NCBI GenBank assembly: GCA_951406725.2
Contig: OX597832.1
Coordinates: 66,526,001-66,590,000, forward strand
DNA from: Octopus vulgaris
Lineage: Eukaryota
Length of the DNA stretch: 64,000 nt
Reading direction: 5' to 3'
The first letter of the stretch is position 1; the number at the start of each line of letters is the position of its first letter. The position numbers and the translations under genes are program-made. Below the pieces are notes generated by a model. That model saw only the letters and a program-made list of their open reading frames with translations. It was not told where the DNA came from and searched no databases. Shown here piece after piece: positions 2,500-51,827 of this stretch.

Positions 2500-3130
2500 T
2501 ATTGTATACATTGCTCAAGTGCACCACAAGTTATCAAAAAGTGTGTATAAAGTATATGCAGTAATGTACAAAAGTCTGGAAAGCGGACAATGTATGAGTC
2601 AGAAAATGCTTGCTTGTGTATAGAGGGGAGAAAATCAGGTGTAGTGTTGGCGTATCTCAGGAAGCATGGACGTTTTGAAGGATACAGTGCTCCGACAACT
2701 AACAACTGATGCCGGCAGTCTGTTCCATGCTTCAGCAACTCTTAGCGTGAAAAAATGTTTCCGAAAGTCATGGGACCTGTGCTGTTTTCTGACTTTGTAA
2801 ACATGTCCACGGGTGTTAGACAGGTGGAGTTTGAAAAGGTGTTCAGAGTTATTGTTTGTAAGATGGTTAATAATTTTATGGGTGTCTGCCAGACGTCGGA
2901 GTTTCAATGTGTCCATGCCCAGGGAAGTAAGGCGTTCAGAATATGGCAAATGCCTGGTGGAGGGTATTCCCTTGTTTGCATGTCGCTGAACGGCTTCTAG
3001 ACGATTAATATCCTGGGCAAGATAGGGGTTCCAGACCGGTGATGCAAATTCCAGGTGAGGTCGTACCATAGCTATATAAAGCCGCAGATAGATAGCCGGG
3101 AGAGCGGCTCACAAAGGACTTGTTGCTCAT
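2500..3130 (-). pseudogene. 5'-truncated CR1/L2-like LINE, C-terminal RT region and 3' end
   Basis: ORF 2635..3069 reads VRPHLEFASPVWNPY..DINRLEAVQR..YSERL..L..RR..TRGH..K..RKHFFTLRV..AWNRLP..VV..FK, the conserved CR1-group ORF2 C-terminus. Confidence 0.85.
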
Positions 3131-7479: not shown

Positions 7480-8745
7480 GGGATTTGGCTTGCAAGATAC
7501 TTTATGTGAGTTCGTGTGTTGAAGCATATTCTGTTGTGTCTGGGGAGAGTTACTCTCTTTTAGTGCCTTAACACTCTCACCGGTAAAATTTCCACTTAAT
7601 TCCTACTGCATTTTTGCAAAATTTTCGTTGGTTCTTGCAACATTTTCAATAGTTCAAACTAATGAAAGGGTTACAAGACGCAACGAAAAGTTTAGAAAAA
7701 TAAAGAAAGAAATGAGTGGAAATTGTACCGGTGCATGTGTTAAATTATAAGGCACTAAAAGAGTATAGATGAGTTGCAAACTTGCAGTTGCAGCGCTAAT
7801 AATTAACTGGTAGTAGGAAGGTAAATGTGTAAAATAAGATGATGTTAGTGTTATGACATTAAAATGAAAATGGAAACAATTGTGAAAGGCAAGGCGTGAG
7901 AAATGGTAAGAGCAACGGAGAAAGTGGCTATGAATTGCGTTGAGAATGTTGTGGTTTGTGTGGAAATTAATTTTGGGTGTTCTTTTGTCAATGCATGGCT
8001 GTTCTGTCGTATAGATTGTATAGGGAAAGGGTTAATGTAAGAGCAATTGGATGAATTGCTTAGCTTTGTTTAGTGGTGCTCGTGGGGCAGAAGTTGCCTT
8101 TGATGCTGCATGTGAGTATAATAATGGTTATAAATAAGTTGGCAGGTCTGCAGGCCCGCCTGAAGGAAGAAGCAAAAAACACTGGTTAGTTTTAATGCGT
8201 GGTAGCAGCGTGTGCTAGAAATAACAGTGAAAAATTTCATAATTCCTTAGTGAAACGCGTGCAGTTGCATTTCTGAAAAAGGCTACGTACCGAATTCAAC
8301 AAAATGAATGAATGTGCTTTAGTTGATCAGTATTGCTTTGATAGAGCAATGTTGTGAAAGAGGAGACGAGAGCAATGGTAAGAAGAAAGGAGACAGTGAT
8401 TATGAATTGCGTTCCGAATGTTGTTTGTCGTATTCATAAGAAAGTAGACAGCTAGAAGAATGAAGAAAGATATCCGTGGTTCTATAGTGGTGTGGGGTCG
8501 TTTGAACTCTCCATACGCTAGGAAGGTTAGAGGTGCAGTGGATGACAATATATTTCACTTCACAATTTAGCATGTGGTTCATATATGTTATCATCTTTCA
8601 TTGCCCCGTCGCGAGAAGTAAGTTTTATTTGCCTACAGTGGTAATGAAATGAGAATGAAATGTAAGGGACAAGGTTTTGGAGATTCCGGTTGGAATGCAA
8701 GGCAGGTCTGAAAGGGTTCCCAACAGTTATTAATAGCAGTGGTAG
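7480..8745. mobile_element. Decayed Penelope-like remnant with inverted terminal segment
   Basis: Inverted repeat about 7548-7655 / 7659-7766; 7481-7526 is homologous to the reverse complement of 27510-27556, the end of the PLE at 26-27.5 kb. Confidence 0.5.
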
Positions 8746-25225: not shown

Positions 25226-26341
25226 ATATATATATATGTGTACAGAAATATCCTCTTACGGCTATCAGAGCACATTGTAATCAATTAGAAAGTAATGTAA
25301 TATGGAGTTTCCCTGTAACTAAAAATCCTGAATTTCCTATCGCTGAAAATATTTCATGTGCTACATGTAAACGATAAATTTAAAAGTTATGAAAGCTGAA
25401 TAGACCTTTACATAGCCAAGTGGCTTTCTTAAGGTTATGTAAGGAAATATGTTAGCACCAATATGTATGATCTGCATTATACAATGAAATTGGACAGTCA
25501 CAATTTGGTGCAAAGCAGGAAAGCTTGCTCGTCAAATCACCAACGCTTAGTGGTTGAACCAACAGTTCAGATTGAAATTTACTTACAATATATATTTTTG
25601 ATATATACTGTGTAAGGAAGGTTGAAATGGGCAAAATCTGATTAATTTGTTGAGTAAAAATAAAGATAGTTTGTACAGCTTCATATCAATTGAGTTAAAG
25701 GATTTGACACAATTTAAAAATTTGAATATCTTTAATATGAAATGAGAAAAATATGAACAGGGTCTGAAAATAGATAATACACATATTAAATAGCATAAAA
25801 ATATATAAAAATGTAAGTAGATGATATAAATTGATTTTTAACAAAAATAATGATGTAGATGGGTACATGTGTATCAAGACAATTCAAGTTTAATAATTAA
25901 TAATTAATTTAATAAAGACTGTGTGCTTTTTTGTCTGAGTGTATATATATATATATATATATATATTGTTATATTTATATATATGGTCATATTTCGGAAT
26001 GGTCATATTGCCAGTTTAGCCAATAAAAACACACGCACTATATATTTGGTGTTATTTTGCTTCAGTGATATTTAATTTTTACATTAATCTCAATCTTATT
26101 TCGGCCAAAGTTCTTTCGTCACTCTCCAGTGACCGCATCAGTGGTCCTTTGTTTTCTTCTCACCTATTTGTGTCTCTCCTTACTAACCGTCAGCCATTTT
26201 GTATTTCTATTGTATGTCTTCATTTGCGCATGCTTATATTTCTATGTGCGTCTATAAGGTTGTTGAAAAGCCAGGCAACCCTATCAAATCTATAATTGGT
26301 AGAACCTATCCTATTGCACTGTATGTAGATTTAGCCCACAA

Positions 26342-26545
26342 ACAAACTGTAAAGCCAGAAATGTAGTCTATAGTATAAGATGTATAGAGGGACGATGCAG
26401 TAACAAGACAGTAATGTACGTAGGGGAAACAGCAAGAAGCATAGGAGAGCGGGTGAATGAACATTGGAGACAACTCAAGGAAGGTAAAAGCTCATCGATT
26501 CTGTACCAACACGCCGAACAGGAACACGGGGGTAGTCTATTGTGA
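26342..26545 (+). pseudogene. GIY-YIG endonuclease fragment of a Penelope-like element
   Basis: Manual translation TNCKARNVVYSIRCIEGRCSNKTVMYVGETARSIGERVNEHWRQLKEGKSSSILYQHAEQEH fits the PLE pattern VVY..C..C..YVGET.R...R..EH. Confidence 0.85.
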
Positions 26546-27325
26546 CCTTAATACTCTGGTGGATGGAGTTAGCTATTTGCTGGATGCTCTCCATAGTATT
26601 AGTTTCTATTACTATATCAACATTACTCTCTTGTGGGGGTGCCTTTACTACTATATTGATATCATCAACATAGCGAGAGTACATGTTTACGAGTATGGAT
26701 TTCTGCAGTAGGCATTCTTTAAGCATTCTGTCCCACCATACCATGAAAAGGTTGGCCACATCACCAGCGATACTAACACCCTCGTCCTGGGCATATATTT
26801 TATTATTAAATTTAAATGTGTGGCCTCTTAGGGTAACTCTTATACTAGCTCCTAGTGCATGTGCGATCATTTTCTTTACTTGATGGACATTTGTGGGGCT
26901 CCGTATGGCTCTGGTCCATCCGCGCCATCTTTCTATATGTGGCTTCCTAGCCATAGAAGTAATTGTAGGCGGTCTACCTTTTTAAACATCTACTGGGGCA
27001 GAAACTACTAAGATTATGTTTATCTAAGTATTCATTATTATATGTAAGTCTAAGTAGGAGGCCCAGTTCTTCTGTGTCGACATTACAGAACTCCACCTGG
27101 CTCTCGTTGATCATCTCCACGCACTTCTCCAGTGCAAAATCTACGTCAATCGATGGGTATAGGGATACCACATCCATGCTACCTACTATACATCCTGTCG
27201 AGTCACAAGTTTTGTTACAGTCACTGATCCTACTTAGGAGATCTTCTGTGCTGTCACACAAATCAGGTGACATCCTGATTATAGGGCGTATGATCATTGA
27301 GAGGAAGTAGGAGATTCTGTAAAAT
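26530..27325 (-). pseudogene. Penelope-like reverse transcriptase fragment
   Basis: ORFs 26974..27426 and 26475..26954 contain GSMDVVSLYPSID, FKFNNKIYAQDEG, VANLFM and YSRYVDDI; split by a stop codon. Confidence 0.85.
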
Positions 27326-27343
27326 TGGTGAGAAGAAAACAAA

Positions 27344-27389
27344 GGACCACTGATGCGGTCACAGGAGTGTGACGAAAGAACTTTGGCCG
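27344..27389 (+). ncRNA. Hammerhead-like motif with variant core (second copy 26102-26147 on minus)
   Basis: GGACCA CUGAUGC G GUCAC-AGGAGU-GUGAC GAAA G-AA-C UU^UGGCCG; 5-bp stem II, stem I CCA/UGG, A9 replaced. Confidence 0.5.
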
Positions 27390-27563
27390 AAATAATATTG
27401 AGATTAATGTAAAAAATAAATATCACTGAAGCAAAATAACACCAAATATATAGTGCGTGTATTTTTATTGGCTAAACTGGCAATATGACCATTCCGAAAT
27501 ATAACAATATCTGTTTCAACACACGACTTCACATAAAAAATCTTGCACAACAAATATTTAAAC

Positions 27564-27629
<66 letters not shown>

Positions 27630-30600: not shown

Positions 30601-30720
30601 ATCCATCTGTATATATATATATATATATATATATGTAGGTCCCGGGTTGATTCGGGGTTAACCACAGTAAATAAGGTACTCAATACATAGTAGAGTAAAA
30701 TTAATTTATTATATAGAAGG

Positions 30721-30771
30721 AGCTTCTACAGGACTAGAACTGTTTCATTCAAGAGAAATCTTCAGGAAGCT
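30721..30771 (-). ncRNA. Type-I hammerhead ribozyme (CUGAAGA core)
   Basis: AGCUUC CUGAAGA UUUC-UCUU-GAAU GAAA CAG-UUCUAGUC-CUG UA^GAAGCU. Confidence 0.8.
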
Positions 30772-30818
30772 CCCTGAAGATTTCTCTTGAATGAAACAGT
30801 TCTAGTCCTGTAGAAGCT
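30768..30818 (+). ncRNA. Type-I hammerhead ribozyme, mirror copy
   Basis: AGCUCC CUGAAGA UUUC-UCUU-GAAU GAAA CAG-UUCUAGUC-CUG UA^GAAGCU; one mismatch in stem I. Confidence 0.7.
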
Positions 30819-30829
30819 CCTTCTATATA

Positions 30830-32299: not shown

Positions 32300-34311
32300 T
32301 ATGTTTGACTTTTGCTTTATGTCTGTACAAGTTGGCTCCAAGTCTCACCCAGAGACCTCAAGAGACAACAGGTTGGAAGTTCTGTGCCATATATTTGGGG
32401 GGGGGTTGTGTTGTACTAGTGAATGTCTAATACAGAAAAATAAAATTTTAAAAACATAAATAAATAAATAAAAGAAAAAGTTTGTTTTAAACCTTGGGAT
32501 TACATAGAGAATATTTTGCGTAGGATATGAGCAGTTCCCATGAGCACTATCTTTTGAATTTCTGCCATTTGGGGGTTTCCTGGTATCTGAGTTAGGTAGC
32601 AATCAGTCCCTTTCGCTATCATTCCCAGGGTACCTATGACAACAGGTATTGTTTTAGTCTTCAGCTTCCACATTTTGCTGATTTCTATTTCAAGATCTTT
32701 ATATTTGCTCAGTTTTTGGTAGGTCTTGACAGATACGTTTATATCGATTGCGACTGTCATATCAATGAGCAGGCATGTTCTTTGTCCGAAGTCTTTCAAT
32801 ATGATGTCTGGCCTATTTGCATCTATCTTCCTGTCAGTTTGAATGGTGAAGTTCCAGAGGAGTGAGATGTGGTCATTTTCAAGCACTGGAGGTGGATTGT
32901 GTTCCCACCAGTTTTTTTTATGGGGCAAATCCAGGTTTTTGCAAATTACCCAGTGAATATATTGTGCAGCTCTATCATGCCTGTTGAGGTATTCTGTAGG
33001 CGCTAGAAGACTGCATTTGGAGACAACATGATCAATGGTTTCATTTTGTTGTCGGCATACACTACATGTTGGGCTACTGCCGTTCTTTAATATGTTGGCC
33101 TGGTAGTTTCTTGTTGGTAGGCATTGATCTTGAGCTGCTATGTTAAACCCCGCTGTTTCAGATTTTAAGCCAGAGGCCATTAGCCATTGATGGGTCAGGG
33201 CTTTGTCAATATCTGCATTATTCGCTCTCTTTGGGTATTTGCCATAGAGAGGTTTTTCGTGCCATTTATTATTCAGAATATCTAAGGCCGCAGTTTTGGT
33301 ACGGGTTTTCATGCGCCTAGATTTTTCTGTGCTTGTTTCTTGTATGTCTATCTCTAATTCCGAAATTGGCTGTATTCGGAATTCACTTAGATATTCCTTT
33401 GCCTGTTTTGTTACTGAGTATGATGCTTTCTTGTTTTAATGTTTTTAGACAAGTTTTAACATCCAGTCCTCAGAGTTTTTCAGGTAGGTGTCTAGGCCAA
33501 TTGTAGCAATCTTCATTGTTATTGCCAGTTGCTAAAGACCACGGCCTCCCACTTTTCTTGACAGATATAGTCGTTCTGTATCTGCCTTATGGTGGTGCAT
33601 TCTATGCATTGTCAACAGTTTCCTTATTTTTCTGTCGAGCTGACATATTTCAGTAATTGACCAGTTAACAATATTGAAACTGTAAGTCACGACTGGTATG
33701 GCTAATGCATTGATCGCTTCGATCCTGTTTCTTGCATTCAGCTCTGTCTTGAGTATTGGTCTCACTCTTCGATAGCATTTTCTCCTGATCCTTTCCTTCA
33801 TCTCTGAATGCCTTATTCTGTTCCCTTCACTTACCCCTAGGTACTTGTAGCTCTCCGCTGGGTCTAGTTCTTTTATGACATTCTGCTGGTCAAGGTTAAC
33901 ATTAGATGCTTCTGTCATTTTTCCTTTGATAAAGGTAGCTTTTGCACATTTATCGAGGCCGAATTTCATTCTGATGTCGTCACTGAATTGTTTGACTATC
34001 GCTAGTAAGCCCTTGAGTTGTTGGTCATTTTTTGCAAAAAGATTTAAATCATCCATGTAAATGAGATGATTTATATTTTTATCAAACATTTTATACCCGT
34101 ACTGCGCGTCATTGAGCAGCTTTGAGAGAGGTATTAAAGATAAACAAAAGAGGAGTGGTGACAGTGAGTCACCCTGGAAAATGCCACACGAAATTTTTAC
34201 ATCACCAGCATTTAGGGTTTCATTGTCACTGTTCAGAATTAGTGTGGTTCTCCATGATCTCATACTTACAGTCAAGAAGTTTCGCAGAGTAGGTGCTATC
34301 TTATAAATTTC

Positions 34312-34313
<2 letters not shown>
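32296..34313 (-). pseudogene. 5'-truncated R4/Dong-like RLE non-LTR retrotransposon within (TAA)n
   Basis: RT motifs GIFQGDSLSPLLF and YMDD; CCHC knuckle CSVC..H....C, RHD, RPD and K..KY of the restriction-like endonuclease; internal stops; TAA tracts on both sides. Confidence 0.9.
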
Positions 34314-34393
<80 letters not shown>

Positions 34394-34400
34394 ATTATTA

Positions 34401-34449
<49 letters not shown>

Positions 34450-35039
34450 ATAAGTGAATAAATAATCAGACCTATTTTGTTGTCTCAAGATATATGAAAG
34501 TTAAATTTGGTTCGTGTAGGATTTGAGAACAGAACAATAATATGAATAAAGATTTAGATACAATGTAAAAAATATTTGAGAGAAGTTAGTTTTCTAGCCT
34601 ATAGACTTCATGGTTACATATTTTATCAACATCAGTGGAGTGATGATATTAATGGTGACCTCAGTGTTATTTGAAATCGAAACATAAAGGGCCGAAATAA
34701 ATGGAATAAATAATTTTTGTTACCGATATTTTAACGATTTTCCCAGATCAAGATGCTTCAACAATCTTCACTCGTTTACATCGACCATAGTATTTGAGTG
34801 TATATTTGTTAATTTGATACCCTTTCTGTTGGAGGGCAAAGAAGATGTTGACGAAATTTGAACGCTAAATGTAAAGATCCTAAACAAATAGAGTTAGAAA
34901 ATTATTTGGGAACCCTAACGAATTTGTCAGCTCACCGTCTTAACGATGAGAATAGTTGTAAGTTCATGATTATACAGGAGGCAAAGCATTTCATGCAGGT
35001 ATCTTTTACGGTTATATAGATAGTATCTATTGGATAATA

Positions 35040-44045: not shown

Positions 44046-45311
44046 CGAGGGGCGTTCAATAAGTAATGCCCCTGACCCACTTCCCATAGCAATAGAGCAA
44101 CGAAACTTGGCACAGGTATTAGTCTTTTTCTACATAGGAACAACCCAGAGGTACACATTTCTCCCATCGTTTGATGCAGTTCTGGAGACCGTTTTCGTAG
44201 AAGACCCCAGCTTGGTCCTCCAACCACGACGTGACTTCAAAAATCAAGGCTGCATCATCTGGGAAACGCTTTCCTTTCAAAAACAACTTAATGGCTGGGA
44301 AGAGGTGAAAATCAGAGGGTGCAAGGTCAGGAGAGTAGGGGGATGGGGGAAGAGTTCATAGCCGCACGCCTGTGCTTCTGATCTGGCGACACGCGAGTTG
44401 TGGACCGGAGCGTTGTCCTGCAGGAGGAGGACGCCTTTGCTGATCTTGCCCCGTCTCTTGGTTTCGATAGCTTCTCTTAATTTCCTCAAAAGTGAAACAT
44501 GATAGGCTCCTGTAATTGTGGTACCCTTTGCCAGGAAATCTGTCATCACTACTCCGTCCAGGTCCCAGAAGACTGTGAGCATGACCTTGCCAGCGGAGGG
44601 CTGCACCCTTGCCTTCTTTGGAGGAGGTGAGTCATGGTGCTTCCACTGCATTGACTGGGCTTTGGTCTCTGGATCATAGTGATGGACCCAGGTTTTATTC
44701 TATGCAATCAGTCTTTTGAAAAAATTTGACTCATCTTCTTGGCACATCCCTAAATTCTTGCTTCTGGAATTCTTGCGTTCTTGCTTCTGGAAAAGTGTGA
44801 GCAACCTGGAAATCCATCTGGCAGAAACCTTTTGCATATGCAAATGGTCATGAATGATAGTTTCCACAGACCCGGTACTAATCTTGACCTCATGGGCTAT
44901 TTGGCGAATAGTTATGCGTCGATCTTCCAAAATGGCAGCCTCAACTTGACGGACAGATGCCTCATCAATGGCAGAAGGGGTGCGACCAGATCTGGGAGCT
45001 GTTTCCACAGAGTTCCGACCATGTTTGAATACACGATGCCAGCGTTTTACAAGGTCATATGATGGGGCATCATCACCATAAGTTACTTTCATTTCATTAA
45101 AAGTCTCCTGTGGTGTGCGTCATTTCAAATACAAAACCCGGATCACTGCTCGACACTCAACATGCTCCATTTCCCACTTGACTCATTTAAAACACCTGTA
45201 AATTAATTTGCCACTTAATCTATAGAGATATAAATAATTGCACATGCAAAATTTCAGCTAGATCAAACAAAGGCAAGTGGGTCAGAGGCATTACTTATTG
45301 AACGCTCCTCG
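44046..45311 (-). mobile_element. Full-length mariner transposon with frameshifted transposase
   Basis: TA TSDs (44044-45, 45312-13); TIRs CGAGGGGCGTTCAATAAGTAATGCCCCTGACCCACTT; ORF pieces with HTH (VKRWHRVFK.GR), KVSARWI, KVMLTVFWD, QDNAPVH and a frameshifted YSPDLAPSDF. Confidence 0.95.
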
Positions 45312-45583: not shown

Positions 45584-46055
<472 letters not shown>

Positions 46056-46273
46056 AGAGCAGAATGGAGTAAGTGGAGCAAGAGTACACACAAAAACGAA
46101 ATGTGTCACTGAAGAGGTCACATATGTGTAACGAAAGATTTCCAGACAATGGGCATGAGTTAAAATAAGAACAGTAATAAAACGAGTAAACCACAAATAT
46201 ATAATGCATTTGTTTATTTCCCAAATTAAAAAACAATTTCCATTCGAAATACAACAACAACAACAACAATATT

Positions 46274-48150
46274 AATGAAAATAATATCTTCGTTTTTCGC
46301 ATTGCAGATCGCTTGCGGAAAACAATCTACTGCCAATAGAGTAGAAGGGATGTCGAAAAGGATCCGAGAGCACCAAACACCTCTTTGTGATAGACAAAGT
46401 TATAATGAAGCATTGTAAATGGTACGAAAAATACTTATGCATAGCCGAGATAGACTTCAAAATGGCTTACTTCATTTTGCCGCATTCGGGGATTTTGGAA
46501 ACACTCGAGATCTGTGGAATGGCTGAGAACGCGTGTGCACTGATTAAGAACAGCATTCCTAGTTGGAAAACACGTCTTTCTTGTAACAACCAGCACTTAA
46601 CCGAAGTAACAAGCAAAAGAGGTATCGTCCAAGGAGATTTTTGTTCACCTCTGTTATTTGTTATAGCCTTGATCTCACCTTCTGTAGACCTATGTAAGTC
46701 GACGCGCACTATAAGCTGCGAAAGAATGGACCTCGTCTCAAACATATTCTCTTCATGGACAATTTTAAACTGTTCGCGAAAACAGAGCTCAAAATATAGA
46801 GGCTGGTGGGGACTGTGCAAATGTACAGCAAAGATATAGGGGTGAAATTCGGCATCTCGAAGTGTGCGGCGCTTATTTTGAAGCGTAGGAAAGGAGTAAA
46901 TTGTAGGGGCATAGAATTGCCAAACGGAGAGAGAATTGAAGACCCAGATGATGATGGAAACAAGAACCTTGGGATCCTGGGACTGGACAATATCTTGCAC
47001 AGACAAATGAAAGACAAGGTCATCACTGCATATTTCAAGTGCCTTAAACTTCACTTGAAATCAAAACTCGACTCAAGGACCCTTGTGACTACCATCAACG
47101 TATGGGTGGTTGCTGTAGTCCGCTATAGTGAACCCATCCTGAGATGGACTCAAACAGAGATTAATCAATTCGATCGCACTACCCGAAAGACAATGGCAAT
47201 ATATGATGCCCTCCACACTAAGGCGAATGTGCACAGGCTTTACATGAAGAAGGGTAAACGTGAACGTGTGCTGATCAGCGTACGGGAGTGCATTAACATT
47301 GAAAGAAGAAACGGCAGAACATTTGGTACACAGCAAACAAGATCTGCTACCATATGTTGCAAATGCAGAAGAATTTAACAAAAAATGGAGTTGTGCTCAT
47401 GTATTCCGATCAAGAACAGCCGATGACAGAGAACAAACTCTAATCCGTTTGGAATTATTTTGTCAGTTTCGCCGTGAAACCCATAAATTAAAAGATTAGA
47501 AAGCATCATGAAGGTGGCTTAAAATATGTGATATAAAGAATACTGTCTGCAGAATGTGTGGGAAGAGGGCTGAAAAATTGACTCACATTGTTAGTGCTTG
47601 ATAAAATCTTGCTCAGAAAGTGTACAAGCGTAGACATGACAGGTTAACCCCAAACAATTGCTGGTTACTATGCCGGAAGTATGGATGTGAGGTTATAGGT
47701 ACTTGGTACACAGGAAAAGCTAATGACCGAAAAGGTGAAGGCAAAAACCTTTGACTTCTAGACACACAAAATTTTAGAGTACCAATGGCCGGATATAGTA
47801 ACATTTAGGAGAGACAAACAATAGTGCCTAATAATTGACGTAGCAGTGCCCGATCAACATATAATCATGAAAGAGAAAAGTATAAATACAGAGACCTGAA
47901 AATTGAGATATCTAAGATATAGCAGCAATGTGAGTCAAACATAAAGGCTTCTATATTGTCATCGGAGCATTGGGTTCAATACCACCCAATCTGAAAAAGA
48001 AAACATCGAAAATCTTTAGAAATATCCTACAATCTACGTGTATTGCAAAACTCGGCATTACATGAAACTGCGCGAATATTGCGTAAAGTTATGTCTGTCT
48101 GAGTCCTTGTTGTGATTTGACAGATAGTGCAAACCCCCAGTTAACACAAT
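46274..48150 (+). pseudogene. Degenerate R4/Dong-like LINE
   Basis: IDFKMAY, RGIVQGDFCSPLLF and FGISKCA motifs, then CRMC and RHD remnants; multiple frameshifts. Confidence 0.8.
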
Positions 48151-48304
48151 ATTTCAATCAACAACAGCACGATATAGTATACAGCACGACGCCTATAAGA
48201 ACAACAAGAACAACAGCAGCAACAATAGCAACAAGAGCAACAACAACAACAACAACAATAATAATAAATAAAAATAATAATAAAAATAATAATAATAAAA
48301 ATAA

Positions 48305-48371
<67 letters not shown>

Positions 48372-48374
<3 letters not shown>

Positions 48375-50735
48375 CATCCAAAACAAAATTAAAAAAAATA
48401 GAAAAGACCTGTCGATTCTTAATGAAATCAGCAAACAATCAACGCTACTGAGCAACAAAAAGAGAACAAAAATGCTCCGCAAATATAACATCACAGAAAA
48501 AGATTTGCCGGAGATAAAAGAAAAGCTGAAGCAAGATATCCTTGCCAAAGCTCAAAGGATCTGCCGATGCCTCCCTACTATGTTCAAGGCATTTACTGCA
48601 GTGATATCGCAAAGGCTGAACAAGCACCTGGACGAAAACAAACTGTTTCCAGAAGAGCAGAAAGGATGCCGCAAAGGCTCATATGGCTGTAAAGATCAAC
48701 TAATGATTAATAAAGCCGTAACTGAAGACAGCCACAGAAAGAAGAAAGGCCTCAGTATGGCCTGGATTGACTACAAAAAGGCGTTTGATAGCATCCCCCA
48801 CACATGGATCCTCGAAACACTAGCCATTAACAAAGTAGCACCAACAATCATAAAATTCATAGAGCACTCTATGAATAAATGGCAAACAGTCCTACACCTC
48901 CAAACAAAAGAGGGACTCATGAAAACCAAAGACATCTCCATTAGAAGAGGAATATTCCAGGGAGACACGCTCTCTCCACTCCTTTTCTGCTTGGCACTGT
49001 CACCTCTATCTGATATGCTAAATAGAACTGGATGCGGATATAAATGTTACGGCAAAACGATCAGCCACCTTTTATATATGGATGACCTAAAACTATACGC
49101 TGCAAATGACAAACAGCTGGAAACACTATTAAAGACAGTTCATGGATTTACCAAAGAAATAGATATGAAATTTGGATTAGAAAAATGCGCCAAAGTAACC
49201 ATGAAAAGAGGAAAACTAGTTAAGAGTAACAACATCACACTAGATAAAACCAATGAAATAAAAGAATTAGACCAAAGCCAAACTTACAAATACTTAGGAA
49301 TCCATGAACTAGATAAGACACAATACACACAAATGAATTAGAAAATAAAAAAAGAATATTATAGACGAGTTAGATCAATACTAAAAACAGAGCTCAATGC
49401 TAAAAACAAAATAATAGGTATCAACACTTTAGCTCTCCCAGTTATAAGTTACAGCTACAATATCCTTAACTGGACACGAAATGAACTGTCCAAAATAGAT
49501 AGGAAAACAAGAAAAATACTGACAGGATCTAGGATGCATCACCCGAAATCTGACATAGAAAGACTATATATACAACGTATAGAAGGTGGTAGAGGCCTTA
49601 TACAGCTGGAAAACTACTATAAAATAACCACCATAGGACTGCAAAAATATCTACTTCAGAAGGAAGGAAAACTGATCCAGATAGCAGCAAAACACGAGCA
49701 AAACAAAAAACTGTTCTCAGTATTTAAGGAAGCTGACAAATACAAACAAGAAATCATACCACCTAATAAACATGAAGAAGAAGAAGAAGATGATGAAGAA
49801 ACAACAAAAGCTATAAAACAAATGAAATCCAAACTAAAAATAGAACAGCAACGAACCATGATAAATCGATGGCAAGAAAAGCCCCTTCATGGTAAATACT
49901 GGACTAAACTAAACGCAAAAGAAATAGACAAAGAAAAATCCCAGCAATGGTTGTGAAGCTCAGGACTCAAGGCAGAAACAGAGGGATTTTTAATTGCAGC
50001 ACAAGACCAAAGCCTCCCCACCAGAAATTACCAAAAAACATGTAATGAAAAGAAATATTACAAGTAACTGCAGAATATGTGGAGATGGACAAGAAACAAT
50101 AAATCATATTATCTCTAACTGCCCAGTCCTGGCTAAGAAGGAATATATTCACAGACATGACAGAGTTGGAACCTACATACATTGGAAGCTATGTCAACAT
50201 TATGGAATAACAACAGAAAAAAGATGGTATAGACACACACCAGAAAAGGTACAGAAAACGAGAAAGCAACCATACTCTGGGATATGCCGATACACACAGA
50301 TAGAGAAATTAAGGCCAACAGACCAGATATAGTTGTCAGAGATCATGAAGAAAAAATGCTTTCTAATTGATGTATCAATACCGGCAGATGACAACGTGTC
50401 TCTAAAAGAAATGGAGAAACTCTCAAAATACAAAGACCTGGAAATAGAGGTAACTAGAATGTGGAATCTGAAAACAGAAACAATTCCTATCATAGTAGGT
50501 GCATTAGGCATGATAAAAAAATATTCAGACAAATACATAACAAAAACACCAGGACTTACAAACACATATAACATACAGAAAATTGCACTACTAGGCACTG
50601 CATACATCCTACGCAGAACACTTTCCATACAATAACCATCAGAGCATCACAACAAATCACAGCACATACCCAAGTCACACAGAGCTGCGCTCGGTAGTGA
50701 AGTGAAAGCACGCTATAAAAATAAAACTACTGAAT
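48372..50735 (+). pseudogene. Young R4/Dong-like LINE (RT plus RLE), 5'-truncated with internal deletion
   Basis: EEQKGC, WIDYKKAFDS, GIFQGDTLSPLLF, YMDDLK, CRICG..H....C, RHD, RPD, IDVSIP, K..KY; few stops or frameshifts; (TAA)n on both sides. Confidence 0.92.
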
Positions 50736-50825
50736 AATAATAATAAAAATAATTAGAAGAAGAAGAAGAAGAAGAAGAAGAAGAAGAAGAAGAAGAAGAA
50801 GAAGAAGAAGAAGAAGAAGAAGAAG

Positions 50826-51827
50826 CATGAAAGCCCGTGCTACAACTGCTTCCTTAGATATTCTGAATAATAAATGACAAGAAAAACCTCTCTATGGCAA
50901 ATGCCCAAAAAGAGCGAATAATGCAGATGTTGACGAAACCCTGACCCATCAATGGCTAATGGCCTCTGGCTTAAAATCTGAAACAGAAGGGTTTATTATG
51001 GCAGCTCAAAATCAATGCCTACGAACAAGGAACTACCCGGCCAATATATTAAAGATCAGCAGTAGCCCAACATGTCATGTATGTCAACAACAAAATGAAA
51101 CCATTGACCATGTTGTCTCCAAGTGCAGACGTCTAGCGCCTACAGAGTACCTCAACAGGCATGATAGAACTGCAGAATATATTCACTGAGTAATCTGCAA
51201 AAACCTGGATTTGCTCCATGAAAAAAACTGGTGGGAACACAAACCACATCCAGTGCTTGAAAATGACCACATCTCACTCCTCTGGAACTTCCCCATTCAC
51301 ACTGACAGAAAGATAGATGCAAATAGTCGAGACATCATATCGAAAGACTTCAAACAAAGATCATGCCTCCTCATTGATATGACTGTCCCAATCGATATAA
51401 ACGTATCTGCCAAGACCTACCAAAAACTGAGCAAATATAAAGATCTTGAAATAGAAATCAGCAAAATGTGGAACCTCAAGACTAAAAGAAAACCTGTTGT
51501 CATAGGTACCCTGGGAATGATAGCAAAAGGGGCTGATCGCTACCTAACTCAGATACCAGGAAACCCCAAAATGACAGTAATTCAAAAGATAGTGCTCATG
51601 GGAACTGCTCATATCCTACGCAAAATACTTTCTATGTAACCTCAAGTTTTAAAACAAACAATTTTCGTATGCTTTTTTAGGCATTCACTAGTACAACACT
51701 AAGTACAAAACCAAATATATGGCCCCCTAGGCATAACACCAACATGAACTTCCAACTTGTTGTCTCTTCAGGTCTCTGGGTGAGACTTGGAACCAGCTTG
51801 TGCAAATGTAAAGCAAAAGTCAAACAT

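Follow-up and report, generated by a model that had tools for sequence, protein, structure and literature searches.

A stretch of 64,000 nucleotides from Octopus vulgaris, referred to here as the window, contains a decayed and internally rearranged copy of a Penelope-like element (PLE), of the kind whose endonuclease (EN) lies C-terminal to the reverse transcriptase (RT). The copy is dead and its architecture is of a known type; its hammerhead is a variant that was probably inherited and is probably of low activity, and the RT of its lineage bears an insertion that looks unreported.

When the RT fragment was used as a query, 64 relatives were recovered out of 161 candidates, the top one being P0001 (93% identity), an O. 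vulgaris ORF of 803 aa that encodes both an RT and a GIY-YIG endonuclease and to which the protein pieces of the locus are 93-96% identical. P0001 covers both fragments of the window, its aa 282 to ~551 corresponding to the RT piece (93% over 151 aa, 96% over 114 aa) and the region from aa 729 to the linker and endonuclease (82-86% by tblastn), while a second O. vulgaris protein, P0191, contains the RT region only. RT motifs A, B' and C are all present, with Pfam RVT_1 scoring under its cut-off, and the GIY-YIG fragment at 26303-26533 (+) matches Pfam PF01541 with E=2e-4 and 22.0 bits, slightly below the cut-off of 22.6; this fragment shows two Cys and two His, and the alignment consensus of the relatives contains CCHH. 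The features expected of an EN+ PLE are to be found here, namely a telomerase-like RT, a GIY-YIG domain with CCHH in the same ORF as the RT, and inverted pLTRs with a hammerhead motif, non-canonical at position 9, and a one-sided tail. The copy is dead, since there are frameshifts near 26980 (RT) and 26310 (linker), and four codons of motif B', aa 552-728 and the C-terminal half of the endonuclease are missing. A sequence search of the PDB returned no PLE. The structure of an intact relative, P0080, was modelled (mean pLDDT 84.6), and in VIA-align the top 14 rows were TERTs (best Z 14.9, rmsd 4.7, 404 aligned), with other RTs close behind at Z 11.9; for a model of a PLE, a TERT as top structural match is as expected.

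The insertion consists of four pieces of alternating polarity, pLTR (-), linker and endonuclease (+), RT (-) and pLTR plus tail (+), set inside a (TA)n target that can be read directly on the left (25942..25966) and right (27565..27628) flanks and would mask any target-site duplication. Piece A (25981..26255, -) is the 3' end of the element, with a presumed 3' UTR of ~86 nt (26170-26255, aligning weakly to a homologue at 46 kb described below) and a pLTR arm of 189 nt. This arm and its inverted counterpart, 25981-26169 and 27322-27510, are identical by blastn at 181/189 nt, and the right arm extends ~54 nt further, up to the (TA)n at 27565. The last two of the differences fall in a stuttered left end (25963..25994, -), where the pLTR terminus recurs as a further short copy with TA repeats between, and which may reflect repeated priming, leaving 6 differences over 181 nt. 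Piece B (26256..26533, +), delimited by tblastn and Pfam, comprises the RT-EN linker, with its first Cys lost in addition to the frameshift mentioned above, and the N-terminal half of the GIY-YIG domain (P0001 aa 729-800 and beyond). Piece C (26529..27321, -), matched to P0001 at the protein level, is the RT core with a long A-to-B' insertion, and piece D (27322..27510, +; blastn) is a 5'-truncated pLTR arm with a near-blunt join to the RT piece.

The RT, running on the minus strand from 27321 to ~26529, and the GIY-YIG on the plus strand converge in a GGGGG run at 26528-26532, so the meeting point that the sequence-only reading had placed near 26530 is borne out; its description of the two domains as fused head-on holds for the meeting, which is real, but the supposed fusion is a breakpoint (26528..26533, with a shared G run of 3-5 nt, a microhomology inferred from the two reading frames) between ORF pieces that are non-adjacent and of opposite orientation. 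A genuine RT-EN fusion gene was ruled out on these same grounds, opposite strands and non-adjacent ORF parts. Each hammerhead is antisense to its adjoining coding piece; a Naiad-type 5' arrangement with antisense hammerheads was also ruled out, the endonuclease of the relatives being C-terminal. Read along the minus strand, the body is colinear from RT through endonuclease to 3' end, apart from piece B, which is flipped and trimmed on both sides; the locus thus has the form of an element truncated at 5', at whose 5' end an inverted and likewise truncated copy is attached. At the pLTR/endonuclease junction there is an inverted repeat of 6 bp, spaced by 14 nt (26234-26259); PMC3846280 discusses the palindromes of inverted PLE junctions.

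The right arm ends in a probable ORF start (27485..27564, +), with an ATG at 27485, 26 open codons and a one-sided tail at 27511-27564. In a short-match search with blastp-short, the best match to this frame among 107 homologues was to residues 1-13 of P0079 (E=0.08); ordinary BLASTP did not recover the tail frame as an ORF start, nor was it ranked by a profile built from six N-termini, and the assignment is suggestive only. A homologue of this tail and probable ORF start is present elsewhere in the window, at 7483-7553 (-), with 79% identity over 53 nt and 0/500 shuffles as high, and no pLTR or hammerhead was recognised adjoining it.

With numbering after PMC4209133, a motif resembling the minimal type I hammerhead was located by descriptor scan and folding in the left arm at 26103..26147 (-), where the core starts at 26141 and C9 lies at 26135, and in the right arm at 27344..27388 (+), where the core spans 27350-27357 with C9 at 27356 and an extra G at 27357, followed by stem II (27358-27373), GAA (27374-27376), stem III (27377-27382) and U17 at 27383. 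Both inverted repeats keep CUGAUGC-G and GAAAGAACUU, as had been noticed from the letters alone, but the '5-bp stem II with differing loops' of that reading has to be corrected: the stem has 6 bp and both arms share the loop GGAG, the actual difference being a compensatory closing pair, U-A on the left and A-U on the right. The motif has the extra nucleotide after position 9, the G10.1-C11.1 pair of stem II, GAAA, an NUH site and a stem I (3 bp, or 5 bp if a bulge is allowed), and departs from the CUGANGA core by having C at position 9 in both arms. Its stem III is non-palindromic, with two central A-A mismatches in the self-duplex, whose energy is +1.4 kcal/mol for the arms, 0.0 for the 46 kb copy and -5.0 for the relative L001, both of which are treated below.

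The relaxed hammerhead descriptor was composed after the motif had been seen, and with this post hoc tool equally good matches arose in 2/2000 dinucleotide shuffles for the right arm and 1/2000 for the left; over the window it matched five positions, the two arms and three weak ones, two of the latter in simple repeat. Rfam identified no hammerhead in the window, the locus or L001, and the motif does not stand out in its folding z-scores (-0.8 to -1.4). An extension of the hairpin by C9-G12 was ruled out as the chief reason for inactivity, the predicted Watson-Crick sequestration being small (P ~0.08), and U17 was discarded as a sign of decay since it occurs in 18/44 published rows. Hand counts of the same 44 rows (PMC4209133 Fig S3) gave A9 in 44/44, C9 in 0/44 and an extra G in 1/44, figures that are biased for A9 by a descriptor that demanded it.

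Another pLTR of this lineage, solo and diverged, lies apart from the locus at 46043..46257 (+), where sequence alignment to the pLTR arm gives 64% identity over 162 nt, with 0/500 shuffled queries as high (best 32 vs 34). Its core, CUGAAGA at 46109, has the canonical A9, with an extra G, C17 and partly decayed stems, and was missed by the relaxed descriptor. Because this pLTR has A9, the sequence comparison makes A9 most likely ancestral and C9 derived in the family, although its divergence is too great for it to decide what the family consensus is. A four-way DNA alignment misplaces L001, and only the three window rows were used. The solo pLTR has a (GATA)n tract on one side and an AAC repeat on the other, and lies a little upstream of an RT fragment, unrelated to it, at 46345.

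L001 (JAAELB010000961.1) is the sole locus on GTDB contigs, from 183 pattern matches, and shows 32% protein identity. In its 3' UTR, at 2535-2578 (+), there is a hammerhead-shaped motif with A at position 5, a U15.1-A16.1 pair, a 6-bp stem I, a 5-bp stem II and a perfect palindromic stem III, for which 1/2000 shuffles was as good. A natural hammerhead variant with U15.1-A16.1 is low in activity, which was ascribed to a lost A15.1-G5 contact (PMC3088659), and because that contact is reported the A5 and U15.1-A16.1 of L001 may co-vary; this putative co-variation, drawn from a single decayed copy with a descriptor devised after the fact, is a lead. Non-canonical cores are thus present in two of the three lineages sampled. 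L001 and a further sequence, P0278, are PLE sequences of this lineage within records labelled as bacterial MAGs, and both are most likely animal DNA in bacterial bins.

Two of the six differences between the arms are the compensatory stem II pair, and in simulations of random changes, chosen after the pair had been seen, such a pair arose in 766/400000 trials (stem II) or 1608/400000 trials (13 pairs), i.e. ~0.002-0.004. Since both arms have C9 and differ by this pair, C9 was probably inherited from the donors and not acquired by local decay, and the arms suggest two donor variants that both carried it. The analysis covered two copies of the C9 motif, both within one insertion; in a search for more family copies by way of the translated antisense pLTR frame, 0/2 candidates passed, and two weak hits were to unrelated tandem-repeat proteins. 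A9 engages G12, which acts as the general base, in a sheared pair (PMC11300833), and because C9 removes this pair the ribozyme is, to judge from the core, probably weak or dead; the non-palindromic stem III is easier to reconcile with lost catalytic constraint than with a new core that is active, a palindrome being needed for dimer cleavage. The hammerhead-dead RNA of another PLE inserts normally in vitro (PMC11167929), so a PLE family can spread with a crippled core. On the other hand, the compensatory pair shows that selection acts or once acted on the hairpin, so that the ribozyme could still be working. The sequence-only reading had suggested that the shared A9-to-C change may be a family-level variant core and not decay, which agrees with an inherited C9 present in both arms together with the compensatory pair, but sits poorly with A9 in the homologous pLTR and with the want of a palindromic stem III.

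For PLEs in general, inverted 5'-truncated copies, one-sided tails of 30-40 bp and a (TA)n bias are described (PMC8557442), as are a pLTR plus a tail with the first 12-22 codons (PMC3846280) and inverted pLTRs with hammerheads (PMC4209133, PMC8557442, PMC3846280); the link from fold-back/hammerhead architecture to Penelope-type enzymes that had been proposed for this DNA is right in that the locus is a PLE, but was already in print in the same three papers. A purified PLE protein cleaves and extends both strands, with two adjacent start sites defining the tail (PMC11167929). The GIY-YIG of the element would have cleaved within a (TA)n tract, and reverse transcription would have been primed by both strands of the target at the 3' end of the element, the left primer beginning at the pLTR end and the right one ~50 nt on, inside the ORF start; such offset priming would give inverted pLTRs with a one-sided tail. 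The endonuclease piece would have been flipped, with deletions on both sides, through microhomology-guided template switching or later repair. Both pLTR hammerheads would derive from donor RNAs already carrying C9, and the C9 hammerhead would keep its hairpin scaffold but neither the sheared A9-G12 pair nor a palindromic stem III, passed along since insertion needs no cleavage. Taken as a whole, this account of a dead, rearranged C-terminal-EN PLE, formed by priming from both target strands and with an inherited weak or dead C9 hammerhead, appears to us probable. The architecture of the insertion is of a known kind and only the flipped internal piece, which may have arisen in the course of insertion or later, is particular to this copy.

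The head-on layout of RT and endonuclease might instead have come about through a later inversion with deletions, or be an assembly error in a repeat-rich region, either of which would fit any reading of the hammerhead. A single flipped internal piece with flanking deletions would account for the entire layout, many PLE copies have been disabled by microhomology-mediated deletions (PMC3846280) and structures of this sort trouble assemblies (PMC8557442), and we accord such an origin some weight while thinking it the less likely course of events; both outer ends are 3' ends of the element in (TA)n, with the tail asymmetry to be expected, and the arms are non-identical, which speaks against a collapsed repeat. 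As to C9, one donor RNA or one arm could have gained it locally, the change being spread by a shared template or by gene conversion and the stem II pair arising later by chance or hairpin template switching. Between the two arms, which are opposed at a distance of 1.15 kb, identity is 96%, and the copy is decayed throughout by frameshifts and deletions. Quasi-palindrome correction is able to mimic compensation. A local origin is nevertheless unlikely in our estimation, given how rarely chance produced the compensatory double change (in a test that was post hoc) and that conversion would tend to wipe out the six differences around C9.

Unlikely too, as we see it, is a C9 core that works family-wide, with the protein of the element helping altered cores to fold and cleave. 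It would explain why the stem II pair was compensated while C9 was kept in both arms and why the remaining core positions, the G10.1-C11.1 pair and the NUH site are intact, and it would find company in L001, where another non-canonical core (G5 to A plus U15.1-A16.1, at positions that interact according to PMC3088659) goes with a perfect palindrome and a 6-bp stem I; one PLE hammerhead, moreover, cleaved only with protein (PMC11167929). Against this stand the pairing of A9 with the general base, the non-palindromic stem III and the canonical A9 of the closest diverged relative, and L001 is itself frameshifted by this reading, so that its core may be decayed. A hammerhead with A9C was also absent from the literature searched, which included PMC6765202 and bioRxiv 10.64898/2026.07.22.740005 and had the PLE hammerhead variants of Lunse et al. 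(PMC5785218), where such cores may already be recorded, outside its scope. An inherited C9 of weak or no activity ranks as the most likely reading.

The relatives of the element were collected as a set of 191 proteins, two unrelated ones having been dropped and many being near-identical cluster members. Motif A was found by pattern in 124 relatives and motif B' as well in 119, and the span from motif A to the end of B' is 134-145 residues in 119/119 measurable relatives, all gathered with queries containing the insertion; this amounts to ~70 extra residues at the position of the telomerase IFD. Counted by hand in PMC8557442 Fig S1, the same span measures 67-70 in six rows (Penelope, Poseidon, nematode and Neptune), ~91-94 in a pair of Naiads that bear an IFD and 120-159 for three TERTs. 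In the P0080 model the insertion, at residues ~505-575, is predicted to be folded (block pLDDT 81-95 over residues 501-580), its likeness to the TERT IFD being one of position and length only, and in the Atlas it matched no named family (best score 0.91, unnamed clusters). The endonuclease is C-terminal to the RT in 116/116 relatives with both domains, and the DKG motif reads DKS in 81/90, DKT in 2/90 and DKA in 1/90; DKS and GG[APS]IG recur as motifs of the lineage. P0001 has a C-x4-C-x2-C linker with a spacer of 7, and among the relatives the spacer from CxxC to the next Cys is 7 in 60/72 and 6-8 in 67/72. The named hosts are O. vulgaris, the jellyfish Sanderia malayensis and the sea cucumber Holothuria leucospilota.

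According to PMC8557442, the IFD marks PLEs with an N-terminal EN, unlike the canonical ones, and is sporadic in Coprina; of six clade-specific peptide motifs, five are absent from the supplement of that paper, and DKSG occurs there once, in the Hydra alignment. The combination of a C-terminal EN with an insertion of ~70 residues at the IFD position met with no report in the literature searched, a scope outside which lie Repbase, the PLE phylogeny of 2006 and the Terminon paper of 2017, any of which may already contain such families. A quick tree comprised this lineage alone, without an outgroup, and is no basis for clade assignment. Among the matches listed there was no reference protein of Nematis, Neptune, Poseidon or Naiad. 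That the lineage is an undescribed clade seems to us an evenly balanced proposition, and we think it improbable that there is an unnamed, widespread invertebrate PLE clade which joins C-terminal GIY-YIG and a telomerase-sized IFD to altered cores (C9; A5/U15.1-A16.1) working with the help of protein.

Several other features were noted in the window. A near-perfect hairpin at 30714-30825, with arms of ~55 bp and AT-rich flanks, drew only spurious miRNA-model matches from Rfam. Non-LTR retrotransposon fragments (RVT_1, zf-RVT) lie at 32475-34500 (-), 46345-47375 (+) and 48268-51664 (+), and an 863-nt inverted pair, 32475-33337 and 50802-51664, represents two 3' ends of one family; these fragments resemble the R4/NeSL type, with a putative restriction-type endonuclease. 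A mariner-type transposase remnant (Transposase_1 E=3e-23, HTH_48) is present at 44280-45119 (-).

As to the role of the hammerhead in PLEs, a family spreading with C9 would be a natural test between dispensable cleavage and protein-assisted tolerance at a position thought to be fixed. Descriptor searches that demand CUGANGA miss motifs such as C9. A C-terminal-EN lineage whose insertion at the IFD position matches that of TERTs in length, in turn, breaks the published split in which the IFD belongs to N-terminal-EN clades and not to canonical ones, and bears on the relationship between PLE and telomerase RTs.

Set beside named systems, the element shares with the canonical EN+ PLEs (Penelope/Poseidon, Neptune, Nematis) a single ORF, a TERT-like RT plus a C-terminally placed GIY-YIG with CCHH, as well as the hammerhead pLTR, the inverted 5'-truncated copy and the one-sided tail (PMC8557442, PMC3846280), but differs in the span from A to B' (134-145, against 67-70 in the six rows counted by hand), in DKS for DKG and in the flipped internal endonuclease piece of this copy. 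Compared with the minimal type I PLE hammerheads of PMC4209133, its motif has C9 for A9, G as the extra nucleotide and a non-palindromic stem III. Penelope/Poseidon elements are distinguished by having no Cys-rich linker before the GIY-YIG (PMC8557442), whereas P0001 has C-x4-C-x2-C; Neptune has CX2-5CxxC followed by a long spacer (~25 aa in the Fig S2 rows), whereas that of P0001 is 7, the use of spacer length as a clade marker being our own reading of PMC8557442 Fig S2. The CX2-5CxxC linker with a short spacer, of 7 residues also in three Nematis rows of Fig S2, and the C-terminal EN are shared with Nematis, from which the lineage differs in that two nematode rows of Fig S1 are without the insertion (70, hand count) while it is found in 119/119 here, and in that the named hosts are octopus, jellyfish and sea cucumber. 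The Hydra clade is characterised by the lack of CCHH, by DKT and by the lack of an IFD, whereas here CCHH is present, DKT is found in 2/90 and the insertion is present. From the Naiads, defined by an N-terminal EN, no canonical hammerhead and DKA, the lineage is set apart by an EN that follows the RT in 116/116, by DKA in only 1/90, by the presence of a hammerhead and by an insertion longer than theirs and near TERT size; with Naiad/Chlamys and TERT, however, it has in common an insertion at the IFD position, with the Naiads a targeting of (TA)n, and with the TERTs the closest structural match of the P0080 model.
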